From: Deltaproteobacteria bacterium
GTDB taxonomy: Bacteria > Desulfobacterota > Dissulfuribacteria > Dissulfuribacterales > UBA3076
Length of the DNA: 64,000 nt
Assembly: GCA_003194485.1 (NCBI GenBank)
Contig: PQXD01000004.1
Location: forward strand, 90,822-154,821
Direction of reading: 5' to 3'
In this document: positions 1,860-49,675 of the stretch, piece after piece
How the letters are laid out: each line of letters starts with the position of its first letter
Numbering within the stretch: the first letter of the stretch is position 1
Translations under genes and position numbers: made by a program
Notes under the pieces: generated by a model
What the model saw: only the letters and a program-made list of their open reading frames with translations
Database searches by the model: none
What the model was told of the DNA's origin: nothing

Positions 1860-2038
1860 TGCGCTTCCTGTCTGGATGGTCACTTTTCGAAGACTTACTG
1901 AAACAAGATAAACTTGTATTAACAACATTTTTTATTTCATTTTTTCTATTCAATCTCTCAGCTACTGGTCCTTGATTTTAGCGTATTTCCATTATCTTAG
2001 CCTGGTGATCTACATTTGGTGCTGATATTTCATATCTA

Positions 2039-2067
2039 TTGACAAGTCCGAATTATTTCTGTATTTA
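2039..2067 (+). promoter_or_regulatory. Possible sigma-70 promoter (TTGACA-N17-TATTTA)
   Basis: TTGACA at 2039-2044, a 17-nt spacer, then TATTTA at 2062-2067, inside a very AT-rich 450-bp tract. It lies about 250 nt upstream of the 2314 start, so the assignment is weak. Confidence 0.25.
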
Positions 2068-2313
2068 TATTGTCGAGTTTGTTAATTGGCTAATCCATAT
2101 CAAAATCTGGAAGGAAAGATTCTGTTGATTTATTTATATAAATTTTGCATTTATTTTGGACATATTTGACAATCATAATATTAAATTAGAAATTAAAATC
2201 AATACATTCAAATCTCTAAAATCACAATTTTCTTTGATGTAATCAGCAAAGGAATGGAATTTACTATACAATAAATGTATATTTATGCTTGAAAAATCAG
2301 AAAGGAGCTTATC

Positions 2314-2589
2314 ATGACTGGAAGAAAGAGAAGCAGGCCCTATAATGTAGATGACGTACGATATGTACATAACCATTATATAGAAATGACGGCTTCCGAG
2401 ATAGCCGATAAGCTTGGTATCAGCAGATTTCAGGTATCAAAGATTGTCAGTGAGCTCAGGAAGCACATAGATTTGCCCAAGAAGACTGTACGTCGGCCTA
2501 ATCCCATTCTTAAGTTTCTTGAAGAAGAAGGTATTAAGCCAAAAGAGGTGACCAAGACAAAAAATACCAGGGGGAAGAAGAAATCTTAG
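2314..2589 (+). CDS. Small basic helix-turn-helix DNA-binding protein (91 aa)
   Basis: AAGGAG lies 6 nt upstream of the ATG. MTASEIADKLGISRFQVSKIVSEL looks like a sigma-70 region 4 / LuxR-type HTH. The C-terminus is lysine-rich, and a strong terminator follows. Confidence 0.6.
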   Translation: MTGRKRSRPYNVDDVRYVHNHYIEMTASEIADKLGISRFQVSKIVSELRKHIDLPKKTVRRPNPILKFLEEEGIKPKEVTKTKNTRGKKKS

Positions 2590-2621
2590 CATCCTAATAA
2601 GCATACCTGAAAAATTTTAAT

Positions 2622-2657
2622 GCAGCTGTATCATTATTTGACACAGCTGCTTTTTTT
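2622..2657 (+). terminator. Rho-independent terminator
   Basis: GCAGCTGT (2622-2629) pairs with ACAGCTGC (2643-2650) around a 13-nt loop, followed by T7 (2651-2657). Confidence 0.8.
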
Positions 2658-2661
2658 ATTT

Positions 2662-3055
2662 ATATGACTATTGAGTTAGCTCCGCTTCGATATATAGTCT
2701 TTGATTATTGGTTAATCATCCCTTGTCCCTCCAATGCTCTCATCCCTTGTTTTCTGAGGCTTTTGCAGCATGGGACCCTCCCTGTTCTCCTCCGCTGCGC
2801 TCCGGAGCCAGGGTTTTCCGTACTGCAAAAGCCAGGAAAACTACGGGACTTCCGCAAGTCGCTCCAAGGGATAATTACCCAATAATCCGTTACAATCAGC
2901 ATATGATGCGGAGCTATACACGACGTCAGACATAGCTGCCGAAAATTGATAGATCCCTTTCAACAATTAATGTGTAATTCAAAATACTTATGCGAAATAG
3001 CAATTGCAAAAATCGGCAATTACTTATGACGCTGTATATAACTCAATAGTCATAT
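2662..3055. repeat. Layered palindromic composite: outer 17-bp inverted repeats enclose a second shell and a C-module
   Basis: ATATGACTATTGAGTTA (2662-2678) versus TAACTCAATAGTCATAT (3039-3055). The inner shell GCTCCGCTTCGATAT pairs with CATATGATGCGGAGC on either side of 2703-2887. Confidence 0.7.
2703..2887 (-). repeat. C-module copy I1 (core hairpin module, arm type c)
   Basis: Arms are GATTATTGGTTAATCATCCCTTG / CAAGGGATAATTACCCAATAATC. The core matches 17963-18156 in reverse orientation. The apex GCTGCGC at 2794-2800 is the reverse complement of GCGCAGC. Confidence 0.85.
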
Positions 3056-3149
3056 TTATTTACCAAATTAGACCCGTGTTTGTATAATATCCCGGATTGC
3101 GTCCTGTTGATCGAGATAGCATGGCATGTTAGGTTAACTCAGTCTCGAA

Positions 3150-3344
3150 GTAAATATTCGGTGAACCCGTGGTCCACTGTGGAAGTTGCCATCCGTGCCC
3201 TGCCGCAGGAGCGGTTTGCCTTTTGCAGGGTTTCGATCGCGGGCCGGATTGCACTGCCTCTCCGGTCTGCAATGAGTGAGCTTTGAAACCCGGAAAAAGG
3301 TAACCGCTCCAAGGCAGGATATAACGGGTTCACCGAATATTTAC
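3150..3344 (+). mobile_element. O-element copy 2 (195 bp, empty)
   Basis: TIRs GTAAATATTCGGTGAACCC / GGGTTCACCGAATATTTAC. It is flanked by GTCTCGAA (3142-3149 and 3345-3352) and ends 43 bp before the gatB start. Confidence 0.75.
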
Positions 3345-3386
3345 GTCTCGAAGTGAAGATATATCCGTTGTGAAGGAGCCTGTTTT

Positions 3387-4817
3387 ATGGAATATGAGGC
3401 GGTAATAGGCCTTGAGGTCCATGTTCAGCTGCAGACTGAAACGAAGATTTTCTGCCCTTGCTCAACTACGTTTGGTGCCCAGCCCAATACGCATTCATGC
3501 CCGGTGTGTGTGGGTATGCCCGGAGTTCTGCCTGTACTTAACAGGAAAGCGGTGGAGTTTGCCATGAAAATGGCGCTGGCTACTAATTGCAGAATAGCCC
3601 CTCTCAGTATTTTTGCGAGAAAGCACTATTTTTATCCTGATCTGCCCAAGGGCTATCAAATTTCTCAATATGAGCTGCCTCTGGCTGAGAGCGGTTGGGT
3701 CGAAATCACTATAAACGGACAGGCCAAAAGGATCGGCATTACACGCATCCACCTGGAAGAGGATGCCGGCAAATTGATACATGATGAAAACAGTCCTGTC
3801 AGCTATGTGGATTTCAATCGGACAGGTGTGCCTTTGATTGAAATCGTGAGTGAGCCTGATATCCGGAGTCCTGAAGAGGCTGCTTTATATCTCAGGAAAA
3901 TCAGACAGCACGTCCGTTACCTGGAGATCAGCGACGGAAATATGGAAGAGGGCAGTCTGCGCTGTGATGCCAATATCTCCCTGAGACCCAGAGGCCGGAA
4001 AGACTTTGGCGTCAAGGCAGAGCTCAAGAATATGAATTCTTTCCGTCATGTGCAGAAGGCTTTGGAGTTTGAGATAAGACGCCAGACAGCTATCTTGCTT
4101 GACGGTCATGAGATAGTACAGGAGACCCGTCTTTGGGATGCGGCCAAGAGTATTACGGTCCCGATGAGAGGTAAAGAAGAGGCCCACGATTATCGATATT
4201 TTCCTGATCCGGATCTGGTTCCGGTCGAGATTGATAATGACTGGATAGCCGAAATAAAGGCGGAAATGCCTGAGCTGCCTGATGCAAAATGCACTCGCTT
4301 CAAGGAGCAATACGATCTTTCAGACTATAACGCAGGAACCCTCACAACCTCAAAGTCCCTGGCTGATTACTTCGAAGAATGTGTGGCCCTGTTTCCCGCC
4401 CCAAACATTGTCAGCAACTGGATAATGGTTGAATTGCTCCATCTTCTGAAACAGGATGAGCGGGAAATAGACGATTGTCCGATATCTCCCGCCGGCCTGG
4501 CAGAGTTGCTCAAGCTGATAGATGAAGGCACTATCAGCGGCAAGATGGCAAAAGACATCCTTGAGCAGGCATATGATTCAAAAAAGAGTCCCAAAAGGAT
4601 CGTGGAAGAACAGGGACTTGCCCAGGTAAGTGATGAATCCACACTTGGTGCTGTGGTTGATAAAGTAGTGGAGGCCCACCCAAAAGAGGTGAAAAAATAC
4701 AAGTCCGGCAAGACAAAGATCCTGGGTTTTTTAGTTGGACAGGTTATGAAGGCGACAAAGGGACAGGCCAATCCCAAAAAGGTAAACGAGTTGTTGCAAA
4801 AGGCCCTGGGCTTATGA
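3387..4817 (+). CDS. gatB: Asp-tRNA(Asn)/Glu-tRNA(Gln) amidotransferase subunit B
   Basis: 476 aa. [31 protein letters not shown] and a C-terminal GatB/YqeY-like tail. Confidence 0.95.
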
Positions 4818-35083: not shown

Positions 35084-35644
35084 TTATTTTTTGTCCTTTT
35101 CCGTTTTGGATTTTACCTCATTATCGTAAGCTTTTATGACTTCGTTTGTGATATCCACATCAGAATCAATGAAATATATACCTGGCATGTTGTTTTCTAA
35201 AATGAGTGTGTATCCACCTTCCTCACCAATACGGTTCACAACCTTTTCAAGTTCCTTGAGTATTGGTTCCATTTTTTTGTTTTCTGCCTGGCGCATTTCA
35301 AACTGGGCATCGTCACTCTGGTCTTTGAAATCCCTAAGGGCCTTTTTATACTCACGTTCCTTTTCCGCCCTGGCGGCTTCATTCATCAAGGGCCCTTTTT
35401 TTTCAAGGTCTTCCTTAAATGCCTTGATCTCATCTTGTTCAGCCCTGAGCTTTTCCTTCAGACTCTCAAATTTTTTATTGAGCGCCTCCATTGCCCTTTG
35501 GCCAGCGATGGATTTTCGGACCACCTTTTGCATATTAATAACAGCTATCTTGACTTGCGGGGTTTCTTTAGCAGCTACATTACACCATAATACCGCAGTC
35601 AGCAGAAAAACCAGTACAGTTATTGAGCTTAGGCAACCTTTCAT
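35084..35644 (-). CDS. skp: OmpH/Skp family periplasmic chaperone
   Basis: A signal peptide is followed by a K/E-rich coiled coil (KFESLKEKLRAEQDEIKAFKEDLEKK). 186 aa. Confidence 0.75.
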   Translation of the reverse strand: MKGCLSSITVLVFLLTAVLWCNVAAKETPQVKIAVINMQKVVRKSIAGQRAMEALNKKFESLKEKLRAEQDEIKAFKEDLEKKGPLMNEAARAEKEREYKKALRDFKDQSDDAQFEMRQAENKKMEPILKELEKVVNRIGEEGGYTLILENNMPGIYFIDSDVDITNEVIKAYDNEVKSKTEKDKK

Positions 35645-40753: not shown

Positions 40754-41473
40754 ATGAGACTGCAAAAATACCTCGCCAATGCCGGTGTATGCTCCAGGAG
40801 AGCCGCAGAAGTGCTCATCCGCTCAGGCCGGGTCACTATAAACGGTGAGGTTGCAAGGCTTGGATCCAAGATAGATCCATACACAGATATCATCTGCGTT
40901 GACAAGATCAGGGTTCTCTGTAAAAGACAACTCGTTTATCTTTTGCTTAATAAACCAAAAGGCGTCCTGACCACAGCTCGTGATCCCTATGGGCGAACCA
41001 CTGTAATGGATCTGCTTCCGGGAAGAGTTCCGGAGCGGGTTTATCCTGCTGGGCGCCTGGATAAAGACAGTGAGGGTCTGCTCCTCCTCACAAATGACGG
41101 TGCTCTGGTTCACCGGCTATTGCATCCCAGCCATAAGATCTCAAAGACTTACCATGCAACAGTGAGAGGGAGACCTTCAAAAGCCGCTTTGGATCTGCTT
41201 CGACGAGGTATAGAGATAGAAGGAAAAACGACATTGCCCTGCGAATTGCGTGTGCTGAAAACCACGAGGCGTTCGACGATACTGGAAGTTACGCTGAAAG
41301 AAGGCAGAAAACGCCAGATAAGATTGATGTTCAATACGTTAGGCCATTCCGTCATCAGGCTGATACGTATCAAAATAGGTCCTATAAGGCTGGGGAAGCT
41401 GCAACCTGGCAAGTACAGGATATTGACCGACACTGAAGTGGAGCTGCTGAAGAAGTCAGCGGGATTGGTTTAA
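40754..41473 (+). CDS. rluB: Pseudouridine synthase, RsuA/RluB family
   Basis: S4 domain MRLQKYLANAGVCSRR and the catalytic GRLDKDSEGLLLLTNDG motif. Confidence 0.85.
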   Translation: MRLQKYLANAGVCSRRAAEVLIRSGRVTINGEVARLGSKIDPYTDIICVDKIRVLCKRQLVYLLLNKPKGVLTTARDPYGRTTVMDLLPGRVPERVYPAGRLDKDSEGLLLLTNDGALVHRLLHPSHKISKTYHATVRGRPSKAALDLLRRGIEIEGKTTLPCELRVLKTTRRSTILEVTLKEGRKRQIRLMFNTLGHSVIRLIRIKIGPIRLGKLQPGKYRILTDTEVELLKKSAGLV

Positions 41474-42255
41474 ATAGCAATAAAACCCAGATACCAGTCT
41501 GTCAGTTCATGCCCCCAGAATAAGGTTATTAGGGCGGCCCCAACCAGAAAGGGACCGTAAGGTATGGCCATATGCCTGTTTCCTTTCTGTAACGACATTA
41601 TTGTCAGGCCGGCAACTGAACCTGCTGCGGCACTCAATAGGATTACAAGCGGAATTGCCTGCCACCCCAAAAATGCCCCTATCATAGCAAGGAGCTTAAT
41701 GTCCCCGCCCCCCATTCCCTCCTTGCGGGCAATGATATAATAGCCCCATGCCACAAGAAATAAAATGCCTCCGCCCATCAATATCCCCAGAAGAGAATCC
41801 CGCCATGACAGCCCGGGAAGCAGAAACGAAGACAGGAAGCCAACGGCAATCCCGGGCAAAGACACTGCATCCGGGATAATTTGATGTGCAAGGTCGACAA
41901 ATGTCACAATTATGAGACATGCTGAAAAATAAAAATAAATAAATAGTTCAGAACTAAAACCAAACTTGTACCAAAGAACAAGGCACAAGAGGCCGCTCAG
42001 CAGCTCAACAAGTGGATACTGCATGGAGATCCTTTCCCCGCAAGAACTGCATTTTGCCCTAAGAAGCAAAAAACTCAGTATGGGGATATTTTCCCACCAT
42101 TTCAGCCTGTGGCCACATTTCGGACAGGCAGAACCAGGCCTTACCACCGACCTGCCTTGAGGCAGTCGGCATATGCATACATTCAAAAAGCTACCGATAC
42201 AGGTCCCCAGCAAAAAGGCCAGAAAGGGCCAGGCGAATGTCGGCAAGGTAATCAT
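41470..42255 (-). CDS. pilD: Prepilin peptidase (A24 family)
   Basis: CPKCGHRL...CSSCGERI zinc motif, GMGGGDIKLL active-site region, multiple TM helices. Confidence 0.9.
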   Translation of the reverse strand: MITLPTFAWPFLAFLLGTCIGSFLNVCICRLPQGRSVVRPGSACPKCGHRLKWWENIPILSFLLLRAKCSSCGERISMQYPLVELLSGLLCLVLWYKFGFSSELFIYFYFSACLIIVTFVDLAHQIIPDAVSLPGIAVGFLSSFLLPGLSWRDSLLGILMGGGILFLVAWGYYIIARKEGMGGGDIKLLAMIGAFLGWQAIPLVILLSAAAGSVAGLTIMSLQKGNRHMAIPYGPFLVGAALITLFWGHELTDWYLGFIAI

Positions 42256-43873: not shown

Positions 43874-45226
43874 ATGACCATGAAACCAAATAATTTCCGC
43901 ATTCTGGTAGTAGACGACGAAAGACACTTGACGGCTCTCTTGGGCCGAATCCTTACACAGTCAGGCTATCAAGTAAAGACTGCCAGCAGCGGCATCAGCG
44001 CTATTGGCAAAATTGATGATTTTTCTCCCAACCTTGTAATTACGGACCTCAAAATGCCTGATATCAACGGACTTGACCTCTTAAGAAAGGTGCGGTCGGA
44101 AAGGCCGGAAATCGATTTTATAATCCTTACGGCCTATGCGACTGTGGAAAATGCTGTAGAGGCTATAAAGGAAGGGGCTTTAGACTATCTCATAAAGCCC
44201 CTCAAGGATCCGGATGAATTACGGATGGCGGTGTCCAGAGTGGTGGAACGCCAGAACCTCGTGGCAGTGGATACTCTATGGAGAAATCAGCTTTCCGAAG
44301 GTCTCCCGCCTACCGATGTTCTGTTTGCCGGCATGGAGGAAGTATGGATAGAAGTACAGCACGTGGCCGGGACAGACGCCACCATATTGCTTCAGGGGGA
44401 AAGCGGTACCGGAAAGAGCCTTGTAGCCAAAGCAATTCATCATTTGAGCGGACGAAAAGGTCCATTTGTTGAGCTTAATTGTGCTGCAATACCTGAAACC
44501 CTTATTGAGTCCGAACTCTTTGGACACGAAAAGGGTGCGTTTACCGGAGCGGTCAATGCCAAGAGGGGAAAGTTCGAGCTTGCCCAGAATGGGACCATGT
44601 TTCTGGACGAGATAGGTGAAATGCCCTTGTCTGCTCAAGCAAAGTTTCTTCGAATACTCCAGGAAAAGGCGTTTGAAAGGGTGGGAGGTACTACTACTCT
44701 CAATACCAGCGCCAGAATAATTGCCGCCACCAACCAGGACCTTATGGCTGGAATACGTGAAAAACGCTTCAGAGAAGACCTTTACTATCGTTTAAATGTT
44801 TTCCCAATAAACCTTCCTCCTTTGAGAAACCGCCTCGAGTCGGTACAGGTGCTTACTGACTATCTTGTACGCTCGATATCTATGCGTGTTGGGAAAAAGG
44901 TCTCTGAAATTTCCAAAGACACGCTGAGACAAATAAAATCCTATGAATGGCCCGGCAATGTGCGGGAACTACATAATGTCATTGAGCGAGCCATTATTTT
45001 AAGCCGGGACTCCAGGCTGACACTGCCTTCGTTGACAACCTCACCTGTCGAGATTGCACCTGGATCAGCTACTAAACGGCTTCGTAGTTTACGAGACCTG
45101 GAAAAAGAAGCCATTGAGGAAACTATCAGGGAAACAGATGGACATAGACGTAATGCAGCAAAAATATTAGGTATTTCAATCAGAACGCTTCAATACAAGC
45201 TAAAGGAATACGGTCTTCTTAAATAG
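43874..45226 (+). CDS. Sigma-54-dependent response regulator (NtrC family: REC + AAA+ + Fis-type HTH)
   Basis: ILVVDDE...[12 protein letters not shown] is the receiver. GESGTGKS and [13 protein letters not shown] (GAFTGA) mark the AAA+ domain. [20 protein letters not shown] is the HTH. Confidence 0.95.
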
Positions 45227-45227
45227 A

Positions 45228-45243
45228 TGGCACGATGTTTGCT
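45228..45243 (+). promoter_or_regulatory. Sigma-54 promoter, consensus-perfect (TGGCACG-N4-TTGCT)
   Basis: TGGCACGATGTTTGCT begins 2 nt after the activator gene's stop codon. GG and GC are correctly spaced at -24/-12. Confidence 0.7.
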
Positions 45244-45253
45244 TATTAGAATA

Positions 45254-45330
45254 TATAAAAAATATTATCCCTCCCAACCCTCCTCTCCCCGAAGGCCTTC
45301 TTGGAATTCTCCAAAAAGGCCTTCTTTTTT
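45254..45330 (+). ncRNA. Candidate sigma-54-dependent small RNA (about 77 nt) with a CU-rich region and intrinsic terminator
   Basis: Bounded by the predicted start about 12 nt after the -12 GC and the terminator at 45291-45330. Contains CCCTCCCAACCCTCCTCTCCCC (45269-45290). No plausible ORF starts downstream of the promoter. Confidence 0.35.
45291..45330 (+). terminator. Rho-independent terminator
   Basis: GAAGGCCTTcTTGGA-attc-TCCAAaaAAGGCCTTC followed by T6 (45325-45330). Confidence 0.85.
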
Positions 45331-45495
45331 ATACTGGTATATCCTTCTGCACGGTCTTTCAGGGAGCTTTAAAGTCGCAATCCATTTATTACTGCTCCAG
45401 GATTTCATTGGTTTATCCAAAAGGCCGCTTATTTCCAGGCAAAAAATGCCGGGAATCCCTCCCTGGAGATATCGAAAAATAACCATGCAAAAGTC

Positions 45496-45553
45496 AGTGC
45501 AAAAATTGCATAAATTAAGTGCAAAAATTGCATAAACCCGCAAAAATTGCATA
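45496..45553 (+). promoter_or_regulatory. Three direct repeats of a TGCA-N5-TTGCA motif (putative enhancer/UAS for the adjacent activator)
   Basis: AGTGCAAAAATTGCATAAA occurs at 45496-45514 and again, identically, at 45518-45536. GCAAAAATTGCATA occurs at 45540-45553. The repeats lie about 100-150 bp upstream of the 45648 promoter. Confidence 0.55.
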
Positions 45554-45647
45554 TCGTGTCTACTGCAATCTTGATTGAAATTTCTCAAAATGGTAAAAAT
45601 TTTTGATATTTTAGATAAATTGAGTCATTAATGCGTGGATATTCAAG

Positions 45648-45663
45648 AGGTACGCAATCTGCA
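45648..45663 (+). promoter_or_regulatory. Probable sigma-54 promoter (aGGtACG-N4-cTGCA)
   Basis: GG at 45649-45650 and GC at 45661-45662 with exact 10-nt spacing, matching 9 of the 12 specified consensus positions. It lies about 115 nt upstream of the 45777 ORF. Confidence 0.5.
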
Positions 45664-45776
45664 TATATTTTCTTGAGTAATCTTAAAAGACAAGAATTGT
45701 ACAAACAATTAACAAAAATCAAAGAGGGCACTTCCGGTTTGTCCCCAAAGTCGACCAGAGGCACAGTTAAGTAGCC

Positions 45777-46244
45777 GTGAACGTGCATAGGGCAATCGAG
45801 TCAAAAGCTGCTTATCATCCCCTTTTTTTCTTAGTTGTCATTCTGTTATTGAACGGTGTCGGCTCTGCTCATGCCAGGAGTATAGGTTATGATGAAAACA
45901 CGGAGATAGTAGCCAGGGGAATAATAAGACAGTGTGAGGCGAAGCCCTATATGAATTTTCAGTGTTTTACTCTTCAGTCCGGATCTCGAATTTTCAGGGT
46001 TATTGTTGCTCCTCGATGGTTTGTCAGGAGAATTCGACTTCAACTCAATAACGGAGTGAAGGTAGAAGTGGTTGGATCGAAATTCTTCGGCAGAGATGGA
46101 CGCCTTTGTCTATTGGCAAGATACATAAGATTTCCTTCCTCAAGAAGAAACGTTGTATTGAGAGACAGGAACTGCAGGCCTGTCTGGCAAAATTCCTGCC
46201 TGAGAGAATCCTCCTGTCTGCGCATTTTTTATCAATCTCCATAG
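45777..46244 (+). CDS. Hypothetical secreted protein (155 aa)
   Basis: GTG start. Hydrophobic signal-like segment PLFFLVVILLLNGVGSAHA. No recognisable motif. Probable target of the upstream sigma-54 promoter. Confidence 0.5.
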   Translation: MNVHRAIESKAAYHPLFFLVVILLLNGVGSAHARSIGYDENTEIVARGIIRQCEAKPYMNFQCFTLQSGSRIFRVIVAPRWFVRRIRLQLNNGVKVEVVGSKFFGRDGRLCLLARYIRFPSSRRNVVLRDRNCRPVWQNSCLRESSCLRIFYQSP

Positions 46245-46266
46245 TAAATCTTATTTCTTTAAACAC

Positions 46267-46863
46267 ATGTCCTTTCCTGATCCTTCTTTTTACCGGAGCC
46301 AAATCCTGGCCAAACGCGACCGTCTTTCCTCCTTTAATCTGAGCCATCTTAGCGAAACAATAACTTACAGGCTCAGGGGGCTTGAAGAATACAAGAGCAG
46401 CAGGATGCCTCTTATTTATGTATCCTTCAGGAGCGAGGTGGAAACGCATCAACTCATCAAAGAGAGGCTCAATAGCGGGCTTGAAGTGGCCATTCCCAAG
46501 ACGGACGTCAAAAACAGGCAGCTGGAAACTTACCTCTTGGAGGATTGGGGAAAAGATCTCAGGCCCGGGGCCTATGGAATATTAGAGCCGGATGCAGAAG
46601 CAGCCTCATTAATACAACCATCCCAAATAGACCTGGCAGTGGTTCCCGGCAGTGTATTCGACCGCAAATGCGGCCGATATGGATACGGAGGGGGATACTT
46701 TGACCGTTTCTTATCCATAAAGGCCCCTCAAGCCATTCGTATAGGACTTGCTTTCAGTCTTCAGCTGCTTCCGGAAATTCCCCTGAAAACCCATGACCAG
46801 AGAATGGACATTATCGTAACAGAAAGTGAGATACTGCGGTGCAATTACAGGGCAGATTCATGA
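46267..46863 (+). CDS. 5-formyltetrahydrofolate cyclo-ligase
   Basis: VVPGSVFDRKCGRYGYGGGYFDRFL is the family signature. 198 aa. Confidence 0.85.
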   Translation: MSFPDPSFYRSQILAKRDRLSSFNLSHLSETITYRLRGLEEYKSSRMPLIYVSFRSEVETHQLIKERLNSGLEVAIPKTDVKNRQLETYLLEDWGKDLRPGAYGILEPDAEAASLIQPSQIDLAVVPGSVFDRKCGRYGYGGGYFDRFLSIKAPQAIRIGLAFSLQLLPEIPLKTHDQRMDIIVTESEILRCNYRADS

Positions 46864-47890: not shown

Positions 47891-49576
47891 TTACTTCATG
47901 CGAACTGATCTTGAAAGGACCTTGCTGAAATTCCTTAATCCCAGCCGGTAATCAGGAGGCAGGTGCACATGGATAGCTCTAAACCTGGCATCAGAAAGGG
48001 CCTCGAAGTCTCCAACCGCCTGGGCAAATTGGATATGCCAGAAAGAGACACCGAAGTCCGGGATTACCGGATAGTCTTTTGCCCTTTTACGAGTAAAGAT
48101 CAAAAAAGCTGCGGAAGTCGGTCCGCCTTTGTAAATCTGGCCCGTAGAATGGAGATACCTCGGACCATAACCCATGGTAGTAGCGCATCCCTTCTCCTGT
48201 CTCACAAAATAGCGCATTTCCCCTACCATTGCTTCCATTTCCGGATCATAGGGCAGGTAAGGGAGAAATGCCAAATAGCCCCAGGTCGGCAGGACATGGA
48301 ACATGTCTCTCATGGCCCTTGAAAGGCTCTTCATGGATACAGCCAGCATCTCTGAAGTACGAAAATGAAGTTGACTATATGGATCTACCCAGAATTTTAT
48401 AGGCATCTTGCCTTCGGCGCGGTAGACATCGAGGATTGCTCCGGTCTTTTCCTTTGAACGCCTGACATCCGGCTCATCAAAGGGATTAACTGCCAGGAAG
48501 TGAGAGGCCAGGGCGGTCGCCATTTCCCACAGGAAGAACTGGGCCCCGAGATCATACAGATCTTCGAGCCACAACTCATAGACGGGGAATTGGGCCTCCC
48601 GCAGCTCTGACACAAACCCTTCCAAAGAGTCCTTTTCCGGAGCCCCTTTTACTCTCAGGTAGACAAAAATACGTTCTCCACCATAAAATCCAGGAATCCC
48701 GGTAGATTCGCCGATAATTGGAACCAGACCCCTGGTCTCTTTACCAGTACTCTCTGCCACAAGCTGTTCCAGCCAGAGGCCAAAGGCCTTGATGGGCAAA
48801 TCGGCCAGGATGGTCAGTTTGTCCCTGCCCTGAACACCGAATTCCCCTAAGAATTCTCCCAGCTTATACCCGGGATTTATATCGCATGGTATGTTAGGGC
48901 CGCATTTATTGACCATCTCTTCGGCCCTTTGAAGTATCCTGCCGATATCAATCCCCAGCAGGGCCGCCGGGACCAGACCGAAGTAAGAGATTGCTGAATA
49001 CCTTCCTCCTATGTCGGTGGGATTAAGAAAGATCTTCAAAAAACCACGCTCATTCCCGAGTTTTTCCAAGGGAGTTCCAGGGTCTGTAATAGCCACAAAG
49101 TGCGATCCGGGATCAGACAGCCCATTCTCCATTAATGGCCAAAAGTAATTAAACATGGCATTAGGTTCCAGCGTAGTACCGGATTTGCTGGCCATTAAAA
49201 ATAGTGTTGAGTTCCAGTCTTTATTCTGGACGACGTTCTCTATTTCGTCAGGGTCGGTGGTATCCAGCACCTTCAGTGCAGGGAATCCTTCTTGAGAGCC
49301 GAATATTTGACTCAAAACCAGGGGGCAGAGACTGGACCCTCCCATACCAAGCAGCACTATCTGCTTGATGCCTCGCTGCTTTATATCTTGCGCGAAATCT
49401 ACTATATCTCCTTTGGCCTCTCTCATCTTTGGAATAACATCCAGCCAGCCAAGACGATCTGTGATCTGCTTTTGAACTTCCGGGGCCTTGGCCCAAAGAG
49501 ACGGGTCCTTTTCCCAAAAACGAGAAAGTACAGCTTTTTTTTCAACATTTGACAGATGTGATGGACGATAAAACAC
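47891..49576 (-). CDS. pgi: Glucose-6-phosphate isomerase
   Basis: 561 aa. SIS-type VLLGMGGSSL, SKSGTTLEP and GGRYS motifs. GTG start preceded by GGAGAGGAGGA. Confidence 0.8.
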   Translation of the reverse strand: MFYRPSHLSNVEKKAVLSRFWEKDPSLWAKAPEVQKQITDRLGWLDVIPKMREAKGDIVDFAQDIKQRGIKQIVLLGMGGSSLCPLVLSQIFGSQEGFPALKVLDTTDPDEIENVVQNKDWNSTLFLMASKSGTTLEPNAMFNYFWPLMENGLSDPGSHFVAITDPGTPLEKLGNERGFLKIFLNPTDIGGRYSAISYFGLVPAALLGIDIGRILQRAEEMVNKCGPNIPCDINPGYKLGEFLGEFGVQGRDKLTILADLPIKAFGLWLEQLVAESTGKETRGLVPIIGESTGIPGFYGGERIFVYLRVKGAPEKDSLEGFVSELREAQFPVYELWLEDLYDLGAQFFLWEMATALASHFLAVNPFDEPDVRRSKEKTGAILDVYRAEGKMPIKFWVDPYSQLHFRTSEMLAVSMKSLSRAMRDMFHVLPTWGYLAFLPYLPYDPEMEAMVGEMRYFVRQEKGCATTMGYGPRYLHSTGQIYKGGPTSAAFLIFTRKRAKDYPVIPDFGVSFWHIQFAQAVGDFEALSDARFRAIHVHLPPDYRLGLRNFSKVLSRSVRMK

Positions 49577-49675
49577 CCGCGATCCTCCTCTCCACGATTC
49601 TTTAACCAGCCTTAATTGATTGTAGAACTCTAAGTCATATACCCCGGCGCTGCAAATAATTTATGCGGAATAAAT

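Follow-up and report, generated by a model that had tools for sequence, protein, structure and literature searches.

A conserved candidate sRNA gene with a sigma-54 promoter directly downstream of an NtrC-family activator gene in Dissulfuribacterales

Introduction

In Pseudomonas the crcZ gene directly follows the activator gene cbrB. Three other kinds of RNA bear comparison with the locus described here: the Vibrio Qrr sRNAs, whose regulator LuxO recognises the site TTGCA-N3-TGCAA; Pxr of Myxococcus xanthus, a multi-stem-loop RNA devoid of a CU tract; and the type I 3'-UTR sRNAs DapZ and MicL, whose promoters are located inside the coding region and are of the sigma-70 or sigma-E type. CbrB, which belongs to the NtrC family, directly activates crcZ and crcY (PMC6296734). 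In Desulfovibrio vulgaris the response regulators DVU0679 and DVU0653 each have as target a sigma-54-dependent ncRNA whose gene immediately follows that of the regulator; that lying beside DVU0679 is Dv_sRNA2 of strain Hildenborough (Rajeev 2011, PMC3333781; Kazakov 2015, PMC4641369). RsaE/RoxS, 6C and IsrR are reported to have C-rich unpaired regions that pair with Shine-Dalgarno (SD) regions.

We analyze here a locus found in a stretch of 64,000 nt (the window) from a member of the Dissulfuribacterales. An earlier note had proposed that a CU-rich sRNA is encoded between the stop codon and the terminator of an activator gene. The comparative tests reported below, i.e. the conservation of the units and their tandem duplication, support this candidate.

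Results

The activator gene and the promoter P1

The elements of the locus are listed in Table 1. The presumed activator combines the Pfam domains REC, Sigma54_activat, AAA_lid and HTH_8, with a GAFTGA motif at residue 221 and GESGTGKS as Walker A; GAFTGA is present in all the orthologs examined (61-92% identity). Its top NCBIfam matches are AtoC, NtrC and ZraR, every one under its cut-off.

Table 1. Coordinates of the elements of the locus (positions in the window)
Feature	Position	Strand	Remarks
NtrC-family response regulator / bacterial enhancer-binding protein (EBP)	43874..45226	+	450 aa; presumed activator
Sigma-54 promoter P1, TGGCACGATGTTTGCT	45228..45243	+	exact consensus match; GG at 45229-30 (-24), GC at 45241-42 (-12)
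Predicted sRNA transcript	45254..45330	+	~77 nt; from promoter geometry and terminator
Unpaired CU-rich core CCCUCCCAACCCUCCUCUCCCC (DNA CCCTCCCAACCCTCCTCTCCCC)	45269..45290	+	22 nt; CCUCC anti-Shine-Dalgarno-like motifs
Intrinsic terminator	45291..45330	+	hairpin 45291-45324, then T6 45325-45330
Enhancer (UAS) array, three palindromes (T/C)GCAAAAATTGCA	45498..45551	.	motif TGCAA-N3-TTGCA
Second sigma-54-type promoter P2, AGGTACGCAATCTGCA	45648..45663	+	GG/GC spacing correct; 3 mismatches to consensus
MamS/MamX-like gene	45777..46244	+	155 aa; GYDENTE motif; presumed P2-driven
5-formyl-THF cyclo-ligase gene	46267-46863		next after the MamS/MamX-like gene
PGI-like gene	47891-49576	-	ribosome-binding region 49577..49600; candidate target only

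The stop codon of the activator gene, TAG, occupies 45224-45226 and is separated from P1 by a single base, A (45227). The promoter therefore begins 2 nt past the stop, as previously noted. Its GG and GC are exactly 10 bp apart within TGGCAC-N5-TTGCW, and the specified positions are matched 16/16. P1 is the sole match to TGGCACG-N4-TTGCW on either strand of the window, for 0.02 expected from dinucleotide shuffles; the claim of a perfect consensus unlikely to arise by chance is thus borne out. No other site with at most one mismatch to this consensus was found on either strand of the window.

Enhancer sites were not found upstream of P1, the 3' end of the activator gene included. For this reason we infer the activation of P1 by the adjacent EBP from the linkage of the two elements and from the arrangement seen in Dissulfurimicrobium (see below).

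The predicted transcript, its CU core and its terminator

Both the start near 45254 and the ~77-nt length are predicted from promoter geometry and are not observations; for the orthologous loci L001-L015 the predicted lengths range from 77 to 133 nt. Folding of the 77-nt RNA from 45254 leaves the CU tract wholly unpaired and forms the terminal hairpin only (-21.5 kcal/mol; z -5.9, equalled by 0/200 shuffles). The strong terminator announced in the earlier note, a hairpin followed by a U-run, is in this way confirmed by ViennaRNA and by the covariance model. Its stem, the self-complementary GAAGGCCUUC, is topped by a variable stem-loop and followed by U6; a simple terminator scanner missed it because of an internal mismatch and of its length. 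The basal 10-bp stem is kept in 40/40 aligned copies, and the apical parts are swapped lineage by lineage with pairing retained. No covariation appears in the stem among the aligned copies because the basal 10 bp never vary, which makes covariation uninformative. The CU core, presumed to be a seed or a binding platform, is unpaired in both the minimum-free-energy and the centroid folds of 5/5 diverse representatives.

The hairpin 45291-45324 is the first one past the activator TAG. As there is no terminator between the activator stop and the sRNA, the sequence would double as the 3' end of the activator mRNA. By its anatomy the locus is classed as a putative "type I" 3'-UTR sRNA with its own promoter, whose terminator is common to the activator mRNA and to the sRNA. 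Two ORFs overlapping the region, 45227-45535 (+) and 45265-45588 (-), were considered as coding and rejected: they have no Pfam matches and non-triplet indels in the orthologs break their frames. Spacer indels likewise have lengths not divisible by three, indicating that the sRNA is non-coding.

The covariance model R1 finds the window sRNA with a score of 96.9 bits (E 7e-30), as a single copy; it detects no second or divergent copy in the window, and no sRNA beside EBP homologs of at most 49% identity. Searched at gathering scores, the whole window gave no match to Rfam families. A permissive Rfam scan (E up to 10) of 45150-45850 returned noise only, e.g. miRNA and snoRNA models.

Conservation and copy number

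Loci were sampled by protein comparison (L001-L015) and, at the DNA level, by an 18-mer scan of metagenomes (~40 true copies). Promoter, core and terminator stand directly past the activator stop in all of L001-L015. Every copy from the 18-mer scan with enough upstream sequence has an orthologous EBP gene on the same strand, and the 11 loci retrieved by unbiased protein look-ups all carry the sRNA element (11/11; EBP identity 65-92%). The element is directly downstream of activator orthologs (61-92% identity) in every locus with sufficient sequence. From this sampling the putative sRNA gene stays with the activator gene across the order Dissulfuribacterales.

The core CCCAACCCUCCUCUCC is invariant despite diverging flanks and an EBP identity falling to 61%, and the promoter-to-core spacer ranges from 29 to 112 nt. 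All the family copies inspected contain CCCAACCCTCCTCTCC, those located through the protein alone among them, family matches being defined by this motif itself. A sigma-54 match (at most 2 mismatches, at most 125 nt upstream) is present in 47/50 unique family copies (94%), and 9 of 4659 control windows (0.19%) have a match of the same grade. Downstream of orthologous activators the promoter, the CU core and the terminator are each kept while the intervening sequence varies; the reverse situation envisaged in the earlier note, a terminator conserved without its promoter, is not what the 47 promoter-bearing copies display.

Whole promoter-sRNA units occur in tandem in L088, L097, L153, L167 and L168, and Dissulfurimicrobium has three tandem promoter-sRNA-enhancer units. 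These duplications indicate a gene in its own right, more than a simple 3' UTR of the activator gene.

The enhancer array, P2 and the MamS/MamX-like gene

The three palindromes of the UAS array (45498-45510, 45520-45532 and 45539-45551; centres 22 and 19 bp apart) are the only such sites in the window, for 0.65 expected. The array follows P1 by 255-310 bp and precedes P2 by 115-160 bp. In 37/38 loci UAS sites follow the sRNA core at a distance of 120-530 nt. P2 is conserved among orthologs, and the distance between the last UAS and P2 is fixed at 116-118 bp in most loci of the SEEP-SRB2 clade. In Dissulfurimicrobium, the promoters of sRNA copies 2 and 3 are preceded by pairs of UAS at a distance of ~145-170 nt.

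The MamS/MamX-like protein has an N-terminal hydrophobic segment which, by eye, resembles a signal peptide, and is 43% identical to the L167 ortholog. Pfam and NCBIfam scans of the window's protein gave no match; its orthologs carry precomputed PF26390 matches.

Candidate targets

In the ribosome-binding region of the PGI-like gene, GGAGAGGAGG (49584-49593) is perfectly complementary, over 10 nt, to CCUCCUCUCC in the sRNA. The PGI start region ranks first among the neighbouring start regions in 6/6 loci of the SEEP-SRB2 clade, and in related loci the G-rich form of its SD takes 7 different variants. Compared with composition-matched shuffles of the sRNA, the pairing gives P values of 0.08-0.84, and of 0.0025 in one lineage; the complementarity is missing in other clades, including Dissulfurimicrobium. 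The shuffles pair almost as well as the sRNA itself. The PGI pairing is thus mostly a composition effect and nonetheless appears as the best local candidate.

The MamS/X mRNA was rejected as a general conserved target, i.e. as part of an incoherent feed-forward loop, the pairing being lineage-restricted. Over the positions scored in a sliding-window RNAduplex analysis, its start region falls within the top 0.3-2.5% in one clade and does not stand out in that of the window. It ranks first among start regions only in Dissulfurimicrobium, and only in the GGGAGAGGA subclade does it differ significantly from the shuffles (P about 0.01-0.04). The activator's own start region was rejected too (no pairing, -1.7 kcal/mol). 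Among the neighbouring genes no target conserved across clades was found: the PGI and MamS/X candidates are lineage-specific, and the scores of the neighbouring-gene candidates are largely explained by G/C composition.

Discussion

A probable mechanism

The analysis shows the anatomy of the sequence, the strict linkage to the regulator gene, the conservation of promoter, core and terminator and the variation in copy number; transcription, the EBP acting on P1, the pairing mechanism and the targets are inferred. The interpretation that we consider probable is that of an sRNA gene with a sigma-54 promoter, P1, activated by an EBP, the CU core of the RNA pairing to SD regions. Sigma-54 RNA polymerase would bind TGGCAC-N5-TTGC just past the activator stop. 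An EBP, most probably the phosphorylated form of the adjacent response regulator, would open the P1 complex, with a start near 45254. Transcription would end at the hairpin and U-run 45291-45330, giving an RNA of ~77 nt whose 5' part, unstructured, includes the invariant CU core. Binding of this regulator to the triple TGCAA-N3-TTGCA enhancer presumably also activates P2, and thereby the gene of the MamS/MamX-like secreted protein. The exposed CCUCC core would pair in trans with G-rich SD regions of several mRNAs and block their translation, the earlier note having proposed GGAGG-type ribosome-binding sites as partners. CT-rich motifs have been shown to silence SD sites (bioRxiv 10.1101/086108).

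Other explanations

An invariance of more than 20 nt exceeds what a seed typically needs, so that a protein-binding RNA would fit this feature equally. Such an RNA would be a sponge titrating an RNA-binding protein, like CrcZ/CrcY (Hfq/Crc) or RsmZ (RsmA), an explanation that we judge rather unlikely. It would account for an architecture like that of cbrB-crcZ (PMC6296734). It would also account for the 20-30 nt that are invariant although the candidate mRNA partners vary by lineage. Each RNA has 4-6 YCCC/CCUCC motifs, to which many lineages add one in the loop of the terminator, and this repetition together with the 1-3 tandem copies suggests that dosage matters. We know however of no bacterial protein established as a binder of C-rich CCUCC repeats, and the C-rich unpaired regions of RsaE/RoxS, 6C and IsrR are reported to act through SD pairing.

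Very improbable is a role in cis, in which the CU tract and the hairpin would be a leader or an insulator: P1 would be an extra promoter of the MamS/X operon provided with an attenuator, or the tract would silence an SD in read-through transcripts. P1, terminator, P2 and operon are co-directional, as such a leader supposes, but a dedicated enhancer and P2 intervene, and the fold predicts no alternative anti-terminator pairing. CT-rich motifs near sigma-54 promoters silence a nearby SD in E. coli constructs (bioRxiv 10.1101/086108), whereas here the closest downstream SD is ~480 nt off, not within 25 nt. Likewise, the MamS/X SD GGGAGAGGA complements the core in one subclade (P about 0.01-0.04), but the MamS/X start region is without pairing in the window's own clade. 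The three successive units of Dissulfurimicrobium would moreover make no sense as a leader.

That the terminator alone is functional, for the activator gene, the CU tract and the sigma-54 match being incidental or the latter a non-productive site, is hardly credible: a hairpin is required anyway to end the activator mRNA and non-productive intragenic sigma-54 sites are common in E. coli (PMC4591121), but this explanation is already contradicted by the comparative data, namely a promoter conserved in 94% of the copies versus a background of 0.19%, an invariant CU core, and complete units duplicated away from the activator stop.

Significance

In the literature searched on Seep-SRB2 or Dissulfuribacterales that deals with sRNA or sigma-54 we found no description of this sRNA. 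It is new and outside Rfam, and belongs to a class already known, that of the sigma-54/EBP-dependent sRNAs encoded beside their activator gene. The RNA would add a family to the few sRNAs directly connected with a sigma-54 activator encoded next to them, namely Qrr, CrcZ, GlmY, Pxr and the Desulfovibrio ncRNAs. Seep-SRB2 bacteria live in obligate syntrophy with methane-oxidising archaea, and sulfur disproportionation is a trait of their relatives. To our knowledge almost nothing is known of post-transcriptional regulation in these organisms. The locus offers them a testable regulatory RNA, with a clear promoter, a presumed activator and a presumed co-regulated envelope-protein operon. Dissulfurimicrobium, which has three copies of the sRNA, is a cultured relative.

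A more extended proposal, which we deem unlikely, is that of an "enhancer cassette": a single EBP array, placed between the two co-directional sigma-54 promoters, would fire the sRNA promoter from downstream as well as the envelope-protein operon, tandem modules (1 to 3) would tune the dosage, and the sRNA, its CCUCC repeats invariant throughout the order, would be a general anti-Shine-Dalgarno mimic. If this were true, the sRNA would re-programme the translation of mRNAs with a G-rich ribosome-binding site, e.g. that of the PGI/transaldolase-like gene, and tie a two-component signal to central carbon flux in sulfur disproportionators and in the sulfate reducers that are partners of methanotrophs. 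The geometry of a downstream or shared enhancer and the tandem modules could also inform how EBPs choose between promoters.

Comparison with known systems

The Qrr/LuxO and Pxr/nla19 precedents put forward in the earlier note are apt as analogies, and this is where the relationship ends: the sRNA has no homology to any Rfam family. With Vibrio Qrr1-5/LuxO it shares sigma-54 and an NtrC-type regulator, a size of ~100 nt, a conserved unpaired region, a terminator, a variable copy number and a TGCA-type palindrome as regulator site. The order of the half-sites of LuxO is nevertheless opposite to that of TGCAA-N3-TTGCA, which here lies downstream of P1, and the sRNA is here in tandem downstream of the regulator gene. 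The Qrr covariance model of Rfam gave no match at gathering score. As for Pxr/nla19 of M. xanthus, the likeness resides in an sRNA located downstream of an NtrC-like activator gene; Pxr was not matched among the Rfam families, if it is included there.

RsaE/RoxS, 6C and IsrR resemble the present RNA, by analogy only, in unpaired C-rich motifs expected to pair with the G-rich ribosome-binding sites of several mRNAs. They are Gram-positive RNAs with sigma-A-type promoters and C-rich motifs in loops, in contrast to the single linear CU tract of 22-31 nt behind a sigma-54 promoter; the RsaE and 6C models of Rfam gave no match. DapZ and MicL share with our locus a dedicated promoter placed where the upstream gene ends, and the use of that gene's terminator. 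The promoter here is instead 2 nt past the stop and of the sigma-54 type, and the upstream gene is the presumed activator itself.

By architecture, the ncRNAs of DVU0679/DVU0653 in D. vulgaris and cbrB-crcZ in Pseudomonas appear as closer precedents than Qrr and Pxr. CrcZ also depends on sigma-54 and an NtrC-family activator, repeats a short motif in an unstructured RNA, and has extra copies (CrcY, CrcX) in some species. It differs by its length of ~400 nt and its A-rich CA motifs sequestering Hfq/Crc, the RNA described here being CU-rich, ~80-130 nt long and free of A-rich AAnAAnAA Hfq/Crc-binding motifs. The D. vulgaris loci, compared by architecture alone, associate likewise an NtrC-type regulator with an adjacent downstream sigma-54 ncRNA in a sulfate-reducing "deltaproteobacterium", though of the Desulfovibrionales and not of the Dissulfuribacterales. 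In D. vulgaris a regulator site is reported at the sRNA target, whereas here the recognisable enhancer is located only downstream of the sRNA, upstream of P2.

The predicted sRNA element and its promoter

The 16-mer of promoter P1 is the only match to TGGCACG-N4-TTGCW at 0 or 1 mismatch on both strands of the 64 kb, and 0.02 exact matches are expected from shuffled sequences; the claim of the earlier note that such an exact sigma-54 consensus is unlikely by chance holds. The gene directly upstream is, as that note had it, of the NtrC type: its product has the expected domains (see table) and carries a Walker A motif as well as GAFTGA, the loop that contacts sigma-54. The region 45200-45340 reads, 5' to 3', ...CTTAAATAG, A, TGGCACGATGTTTGCT, TATTAGAATATATAAAAAATATTAT, CCCTCCCAACCCTCCTCTCCCC, GAAGGCCTTCTTGGAATTCTCCAAAAAGGCCTTC, TTTTTT. 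The sRNA start is predicted from promoter geometry and the RNA length of 77 nt follows from that start. Once folded, this RNA is unpaired up to 45290 and forms a single hairpin (45291-45324) followed by U6 (-21.5 kcal/mol, z = -5.9). A short RNA of about 77 nt with a strong terminator and a CU stretch is an accurate description of the sequence, the start being predicted, and the other descriptive statements of the note were equally correct. No Rfam family matching the sRNA was found.

Features of the window around the predicted sRNA gene
Feature	Position	Strand	Description
Activator gene	43874-45226	+	450 aa; receiver, sigma-54-interaction AAA+, AAA-lid and HTH_8 domains
P1, sigma-54 promoter	45228-45243		
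Predicted sRNA	45254-45330		
Core	45269-45290		unpaired CU-rich tract
Terminator	45291-45330		hairpin and U-run
Three palindromes	45498-45510, 45520-45532, 45539-45551		TGCAAAAATTGCA; third with C in place of first T
AT-rich stretch	45585-45630		AAATGGTAAAAATTTTTGATATTTTAGATAAATTGAG
P2, sigma-54-type promoter	45648-45663		AGGTACGCAATCTGCA; GG and GC correctly spaced; three mismatches to consensus; weaker than P1
MamS/MamX-like gene	45777-46244		155 aa; signal-peptide-like start, GYDENTE motif
PGI-like gene	47891-49576	-	561 aa; GTG start

Conservation behind orthologous activators

A protein-guided scan, with one genome per species, gave 14 activator loci at 84-89% identity, all from MAGs of Seep-SRB2, 'Deltaproteobacteria' or Thermodesulfobacteriota, and one at 63%. 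Identical proteins are listed at NCBI under Dissulfuribacterales. TGGCA(C/T)G-N4-(T/A)TGC lies 1-40 nt past the activator stop in 15/15 loci and is followed each time by a spacer, (C/T)CCCAACCCTCCTCTCCC(C/T)GAAGGCCTT, a hairpin and a T-run. The spacer between promoter and core is very different in length and sequence among these loci (predicted RNAs of 77-133 nt). Spacer lengths differ by numbers not divisible by three, so a coding reading of the mechanical ORFs that span the region is ruled out.

A metagenome scan for exact matches to 18 nt of the core returned 86 stretches. Some 40 of them carry a GAAGGCCTTC...GAAGGCCTTC-T(n) terminator and count as true copies; the remainder are chance matches in GC-rich DNA that lack both terminator and promoter. 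All true copies with enough upstream sequence have an activator ortholog on the same strand, ending about 60-150 nt 5' of the core (phmmer E 1e-180 to 1e-264, 61-89% identity, GAFTGA present). Because the DNA scan pre-selects the core, we added a sampling by protein: the contigs of 11 activator homologs (65-92% identity), drawn from a search of 5.8 billion proteins, were inspected. The element is present in 11/11, including a variant core, CCCUCCCAACCCUCCUCUCCGGAAAGGC, which is out of reach for the DNA scan. The conservation of promoter, CU tract and terminator behind orthologous activators, on which the earlier note had made its reading depend, is thus found in 15/15 and 11/11 loci. Strong selection acts on the unit of sigma-54 promoter, intrinsic terminator and, in between, a non-coding body whose invariant CU tract is exposed, and the unit is tied strictly to a single ortholog group of response regulators. 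In the window, a covariance model made from 40 unique copies detects one copy; next to activator homologs of at most 49% identity it detects none. A weak covariance-model match at 35331-35403 (18.6 bits) is no family member: it is one more terminator-like hairpin with a GGGCC stem and a T-run. About eight metagenome contigs (L083, L091, L099, L101, L107, L125, L136 and L150) start or stop less than 100 nt from the sRNA, as expected if an identical element common to co-occurring strains, or a tandem repeat, breaks assembly.

Promoters were counted over the 125 nt before the core in the 50 unique copies that have 130 nt or more of upstream sequence: 18 have no mismatch to the sigma-54 consensus, 20 have one, 9 two and 3 three. 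Of 4659 equally sized control windows taken from these loci, 9 (0.19%) have no more than two mismatches. The promoter belongs to the conserved unit. Many lineages have two promoters in tandem: one directly behind the stop codon, one 30-48 nt 5' of the core. Only the stop-codon-proximal one is present in the window, at a short distance from the core. Whole promoter-sRNA units are duplicated at three loci (L088, L153, L097). The 2.0-Mb Dissulfurimicrobium record CP085041.1 (L167, 7400-8090) carries three tandem units with a 283-nt period, each unit region comprising a sigma-54 promoter, the sRNA and two enhancer palindromes, with palindrome pairs after copies 1 and 2; a related MAG (L168) has two sRNA copies. 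Copies 2 and 3 of Dissulfurimicrobium lie hundreds of nt from the activator stop codon, so the element cannot be solely the 3' UTR or terminator of the activator gene, and this reading is ruled out. The 5' leader of these copies (AGAGAGAGA) could pair weakly with CUCUC of the core, according to fold prediction.

The comparative evidence (conserved promoter, core, terminator and activator linkage) supports the interpretation of the earlier note, and from the sequences compared we consider it very probable that this is a real sigma-54-type sRNA gene.

Probable enhancer palindromes and second promoter

The palindromes begin about 170 nt past the terminator, with centres 22 and 19 bp apart, and the window has no other such sites. 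Two to four of them are found 120-530 nt 3' of the first core in 37 of 38 unique loci; the 3' end of the activator gene in these 38 loci contains none beyond stray matches. They are likely the binding array of the adjacent enhancer-binding protein (EBP). P2 follows 117 bp past the last palindrome, and a sigma-54-like promoter after the palindromes is conserved, at 116-118 bp in most Seep-SRB2-clade loci. The 155-aa protein encoded behind P2 gave no match in Pfam and NCBIfam scans; its orthologs have precomputed PF26390 (MamS_MamX) matches. The next gene encodes 5-formyl-THF cyclo-ligase (stretch 45777-46863).

The AT-rich stretch between enhancer and P2 is conserved. Its reverse strand shows near-matches to the IHF consensus WATCAA-N4-TTR, and a DNA-bending site is possible there. 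In the P2 5' UTR, about 45738-45765 (TGTCCCCAAAGTCGACCAGAGG) aligns loosely with the core end and stem start at 45284-45304 (TCTCCCCGAAGGCCTTCTTGG); AGACAAGA occurs in both stretches and also at the 5' end of the sRNA copies in Dissulfurimicrobium. This part of the UTR may derive from a second sRNA copy that has decayed and now acts as a leader.

The adjacent regulator, bound to the TGCAA-N3-TTGCA array, would activate P2 and the sRNA promoter(s). In Dissulfurimicrobium the palindrome pairs lie 145-170 nt 5' of the promoters of sRNA copies 2 and 3; the motif has there the position expected of a classical enhancer 5' of sRNA promoters. P1 of the window, by contrast, has the array on its downstream side. 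EBPs are able to act from downstream via DNA looping, as established for NtrC, and activation of P1 from this array would be the weakest link of the model. With activation by the adjacent regulator and action in trans added, the model as a whole seems to us reasonably probable.

Behind activator homologs at 45-49% identity (L016, 5314-5520; L018, 5335-5580) come TGCA-type UAS-like repeats, then a sigma-54 promoter and the gene of a small secreted protein, with LTxxQ/Spy/ZraP-like sequence in L018, and no sRNA. The sRNA looks to have been added to an older module of EBP and periplasmic protein. In the related genomes L172, L173, L176 and L177 (about 2020-3500), the pseudouridine synthase gene and the prepilin peptidase gene have a second sigma-54 activator gene between them. 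It is absent from L170, L174 and the window, where these two genes (40754-42255) abut with an overlap at 41470-41473.

Candidate targets

The CU tract would pair with G-rich ribosome-binding sites and repress translation. Its CCUCC has the same letters as the 16S anti-Shine-Dalgarno (SD) sequence. The C-rich sRNAs RsaE/RoxS, 6C and IsrR act through such SD-site pairing and repression, and SD sites are silenced in cis by CT-rich motifs (bioRxiv 10.1101/086108).

The window contains two perfect complements of the sRNA, of at least 9 nt, 7 nt 5' of a possible start codon. One is inside an 842-aa ORF; the other, GGAGAGGAGG (49584-49593, minus strand), is the SD of the PGI-like gene, three genes away. 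The SD region of this gene (within 49577-49600) is unusually long and G-rich, and its orthologs have different long G-rich variants, e.g. GGGGTGAGGAGGG, GGGGTTGGGAGG and GGGGGGG, seven in all. Pairing to the 16S tail is no explanation for the 5' G-rich extension. Compared by duplex energy with the other start regions nearby, that of PGI comes first in 6/6 Seep-SRB2-clade loci examined (ranks 1/18, 1/12, 1/12, 1/11, 1/12 and 1/10); composition-matched shuffles of the sRNA pair with it almost equally well (P = 0.08-0.84), the exception being the GGGGTGAGGAGGG lineage only (-35.6 kcal/mol, P = 0.0025). Dissulfurimicrobium and the AT-rich clade have no PGI complementarity. The MamS/MamX-like start region displays modestly specific complementarity, GGGAGAGGA, in one subclade only (P 0.01-0.04). 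No conserved target of the sRNA was found among the neighbouring genes. We would give the SD-pairing mechanism specifically an even chance.

Comparison with known systems

A sigma-54-promoter sRNA beside the gene of its NtrC-type activator is an architecture already known, for example in Qrr/LuxO, GlmY/GlrR and Pxr/nla19. The response regulators DVU0679 and DVU0653 of D. vulgaris have as target an ncRNA just 3' of their own gene (PMC3333781, PMC4641369), and crcZ and crcY are activated by CbrB (PMC6296734). No paper describing the present RNA was found in the literature searched. Given this known architecture, and with no match in Rfam or that literature, we place it as a newly described RNA of an established type: a well-supported new RNA family from little-studied bacteria of ecological importance, not a new principle. 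Particular to this system are the anti-SD-like invariant tract, the promoter starting 2 nt past the activator stop, the enhancer that separates the sRNA from a second sigma-54 promoter, and the tandem promoter-sRNA-enhancer modules.
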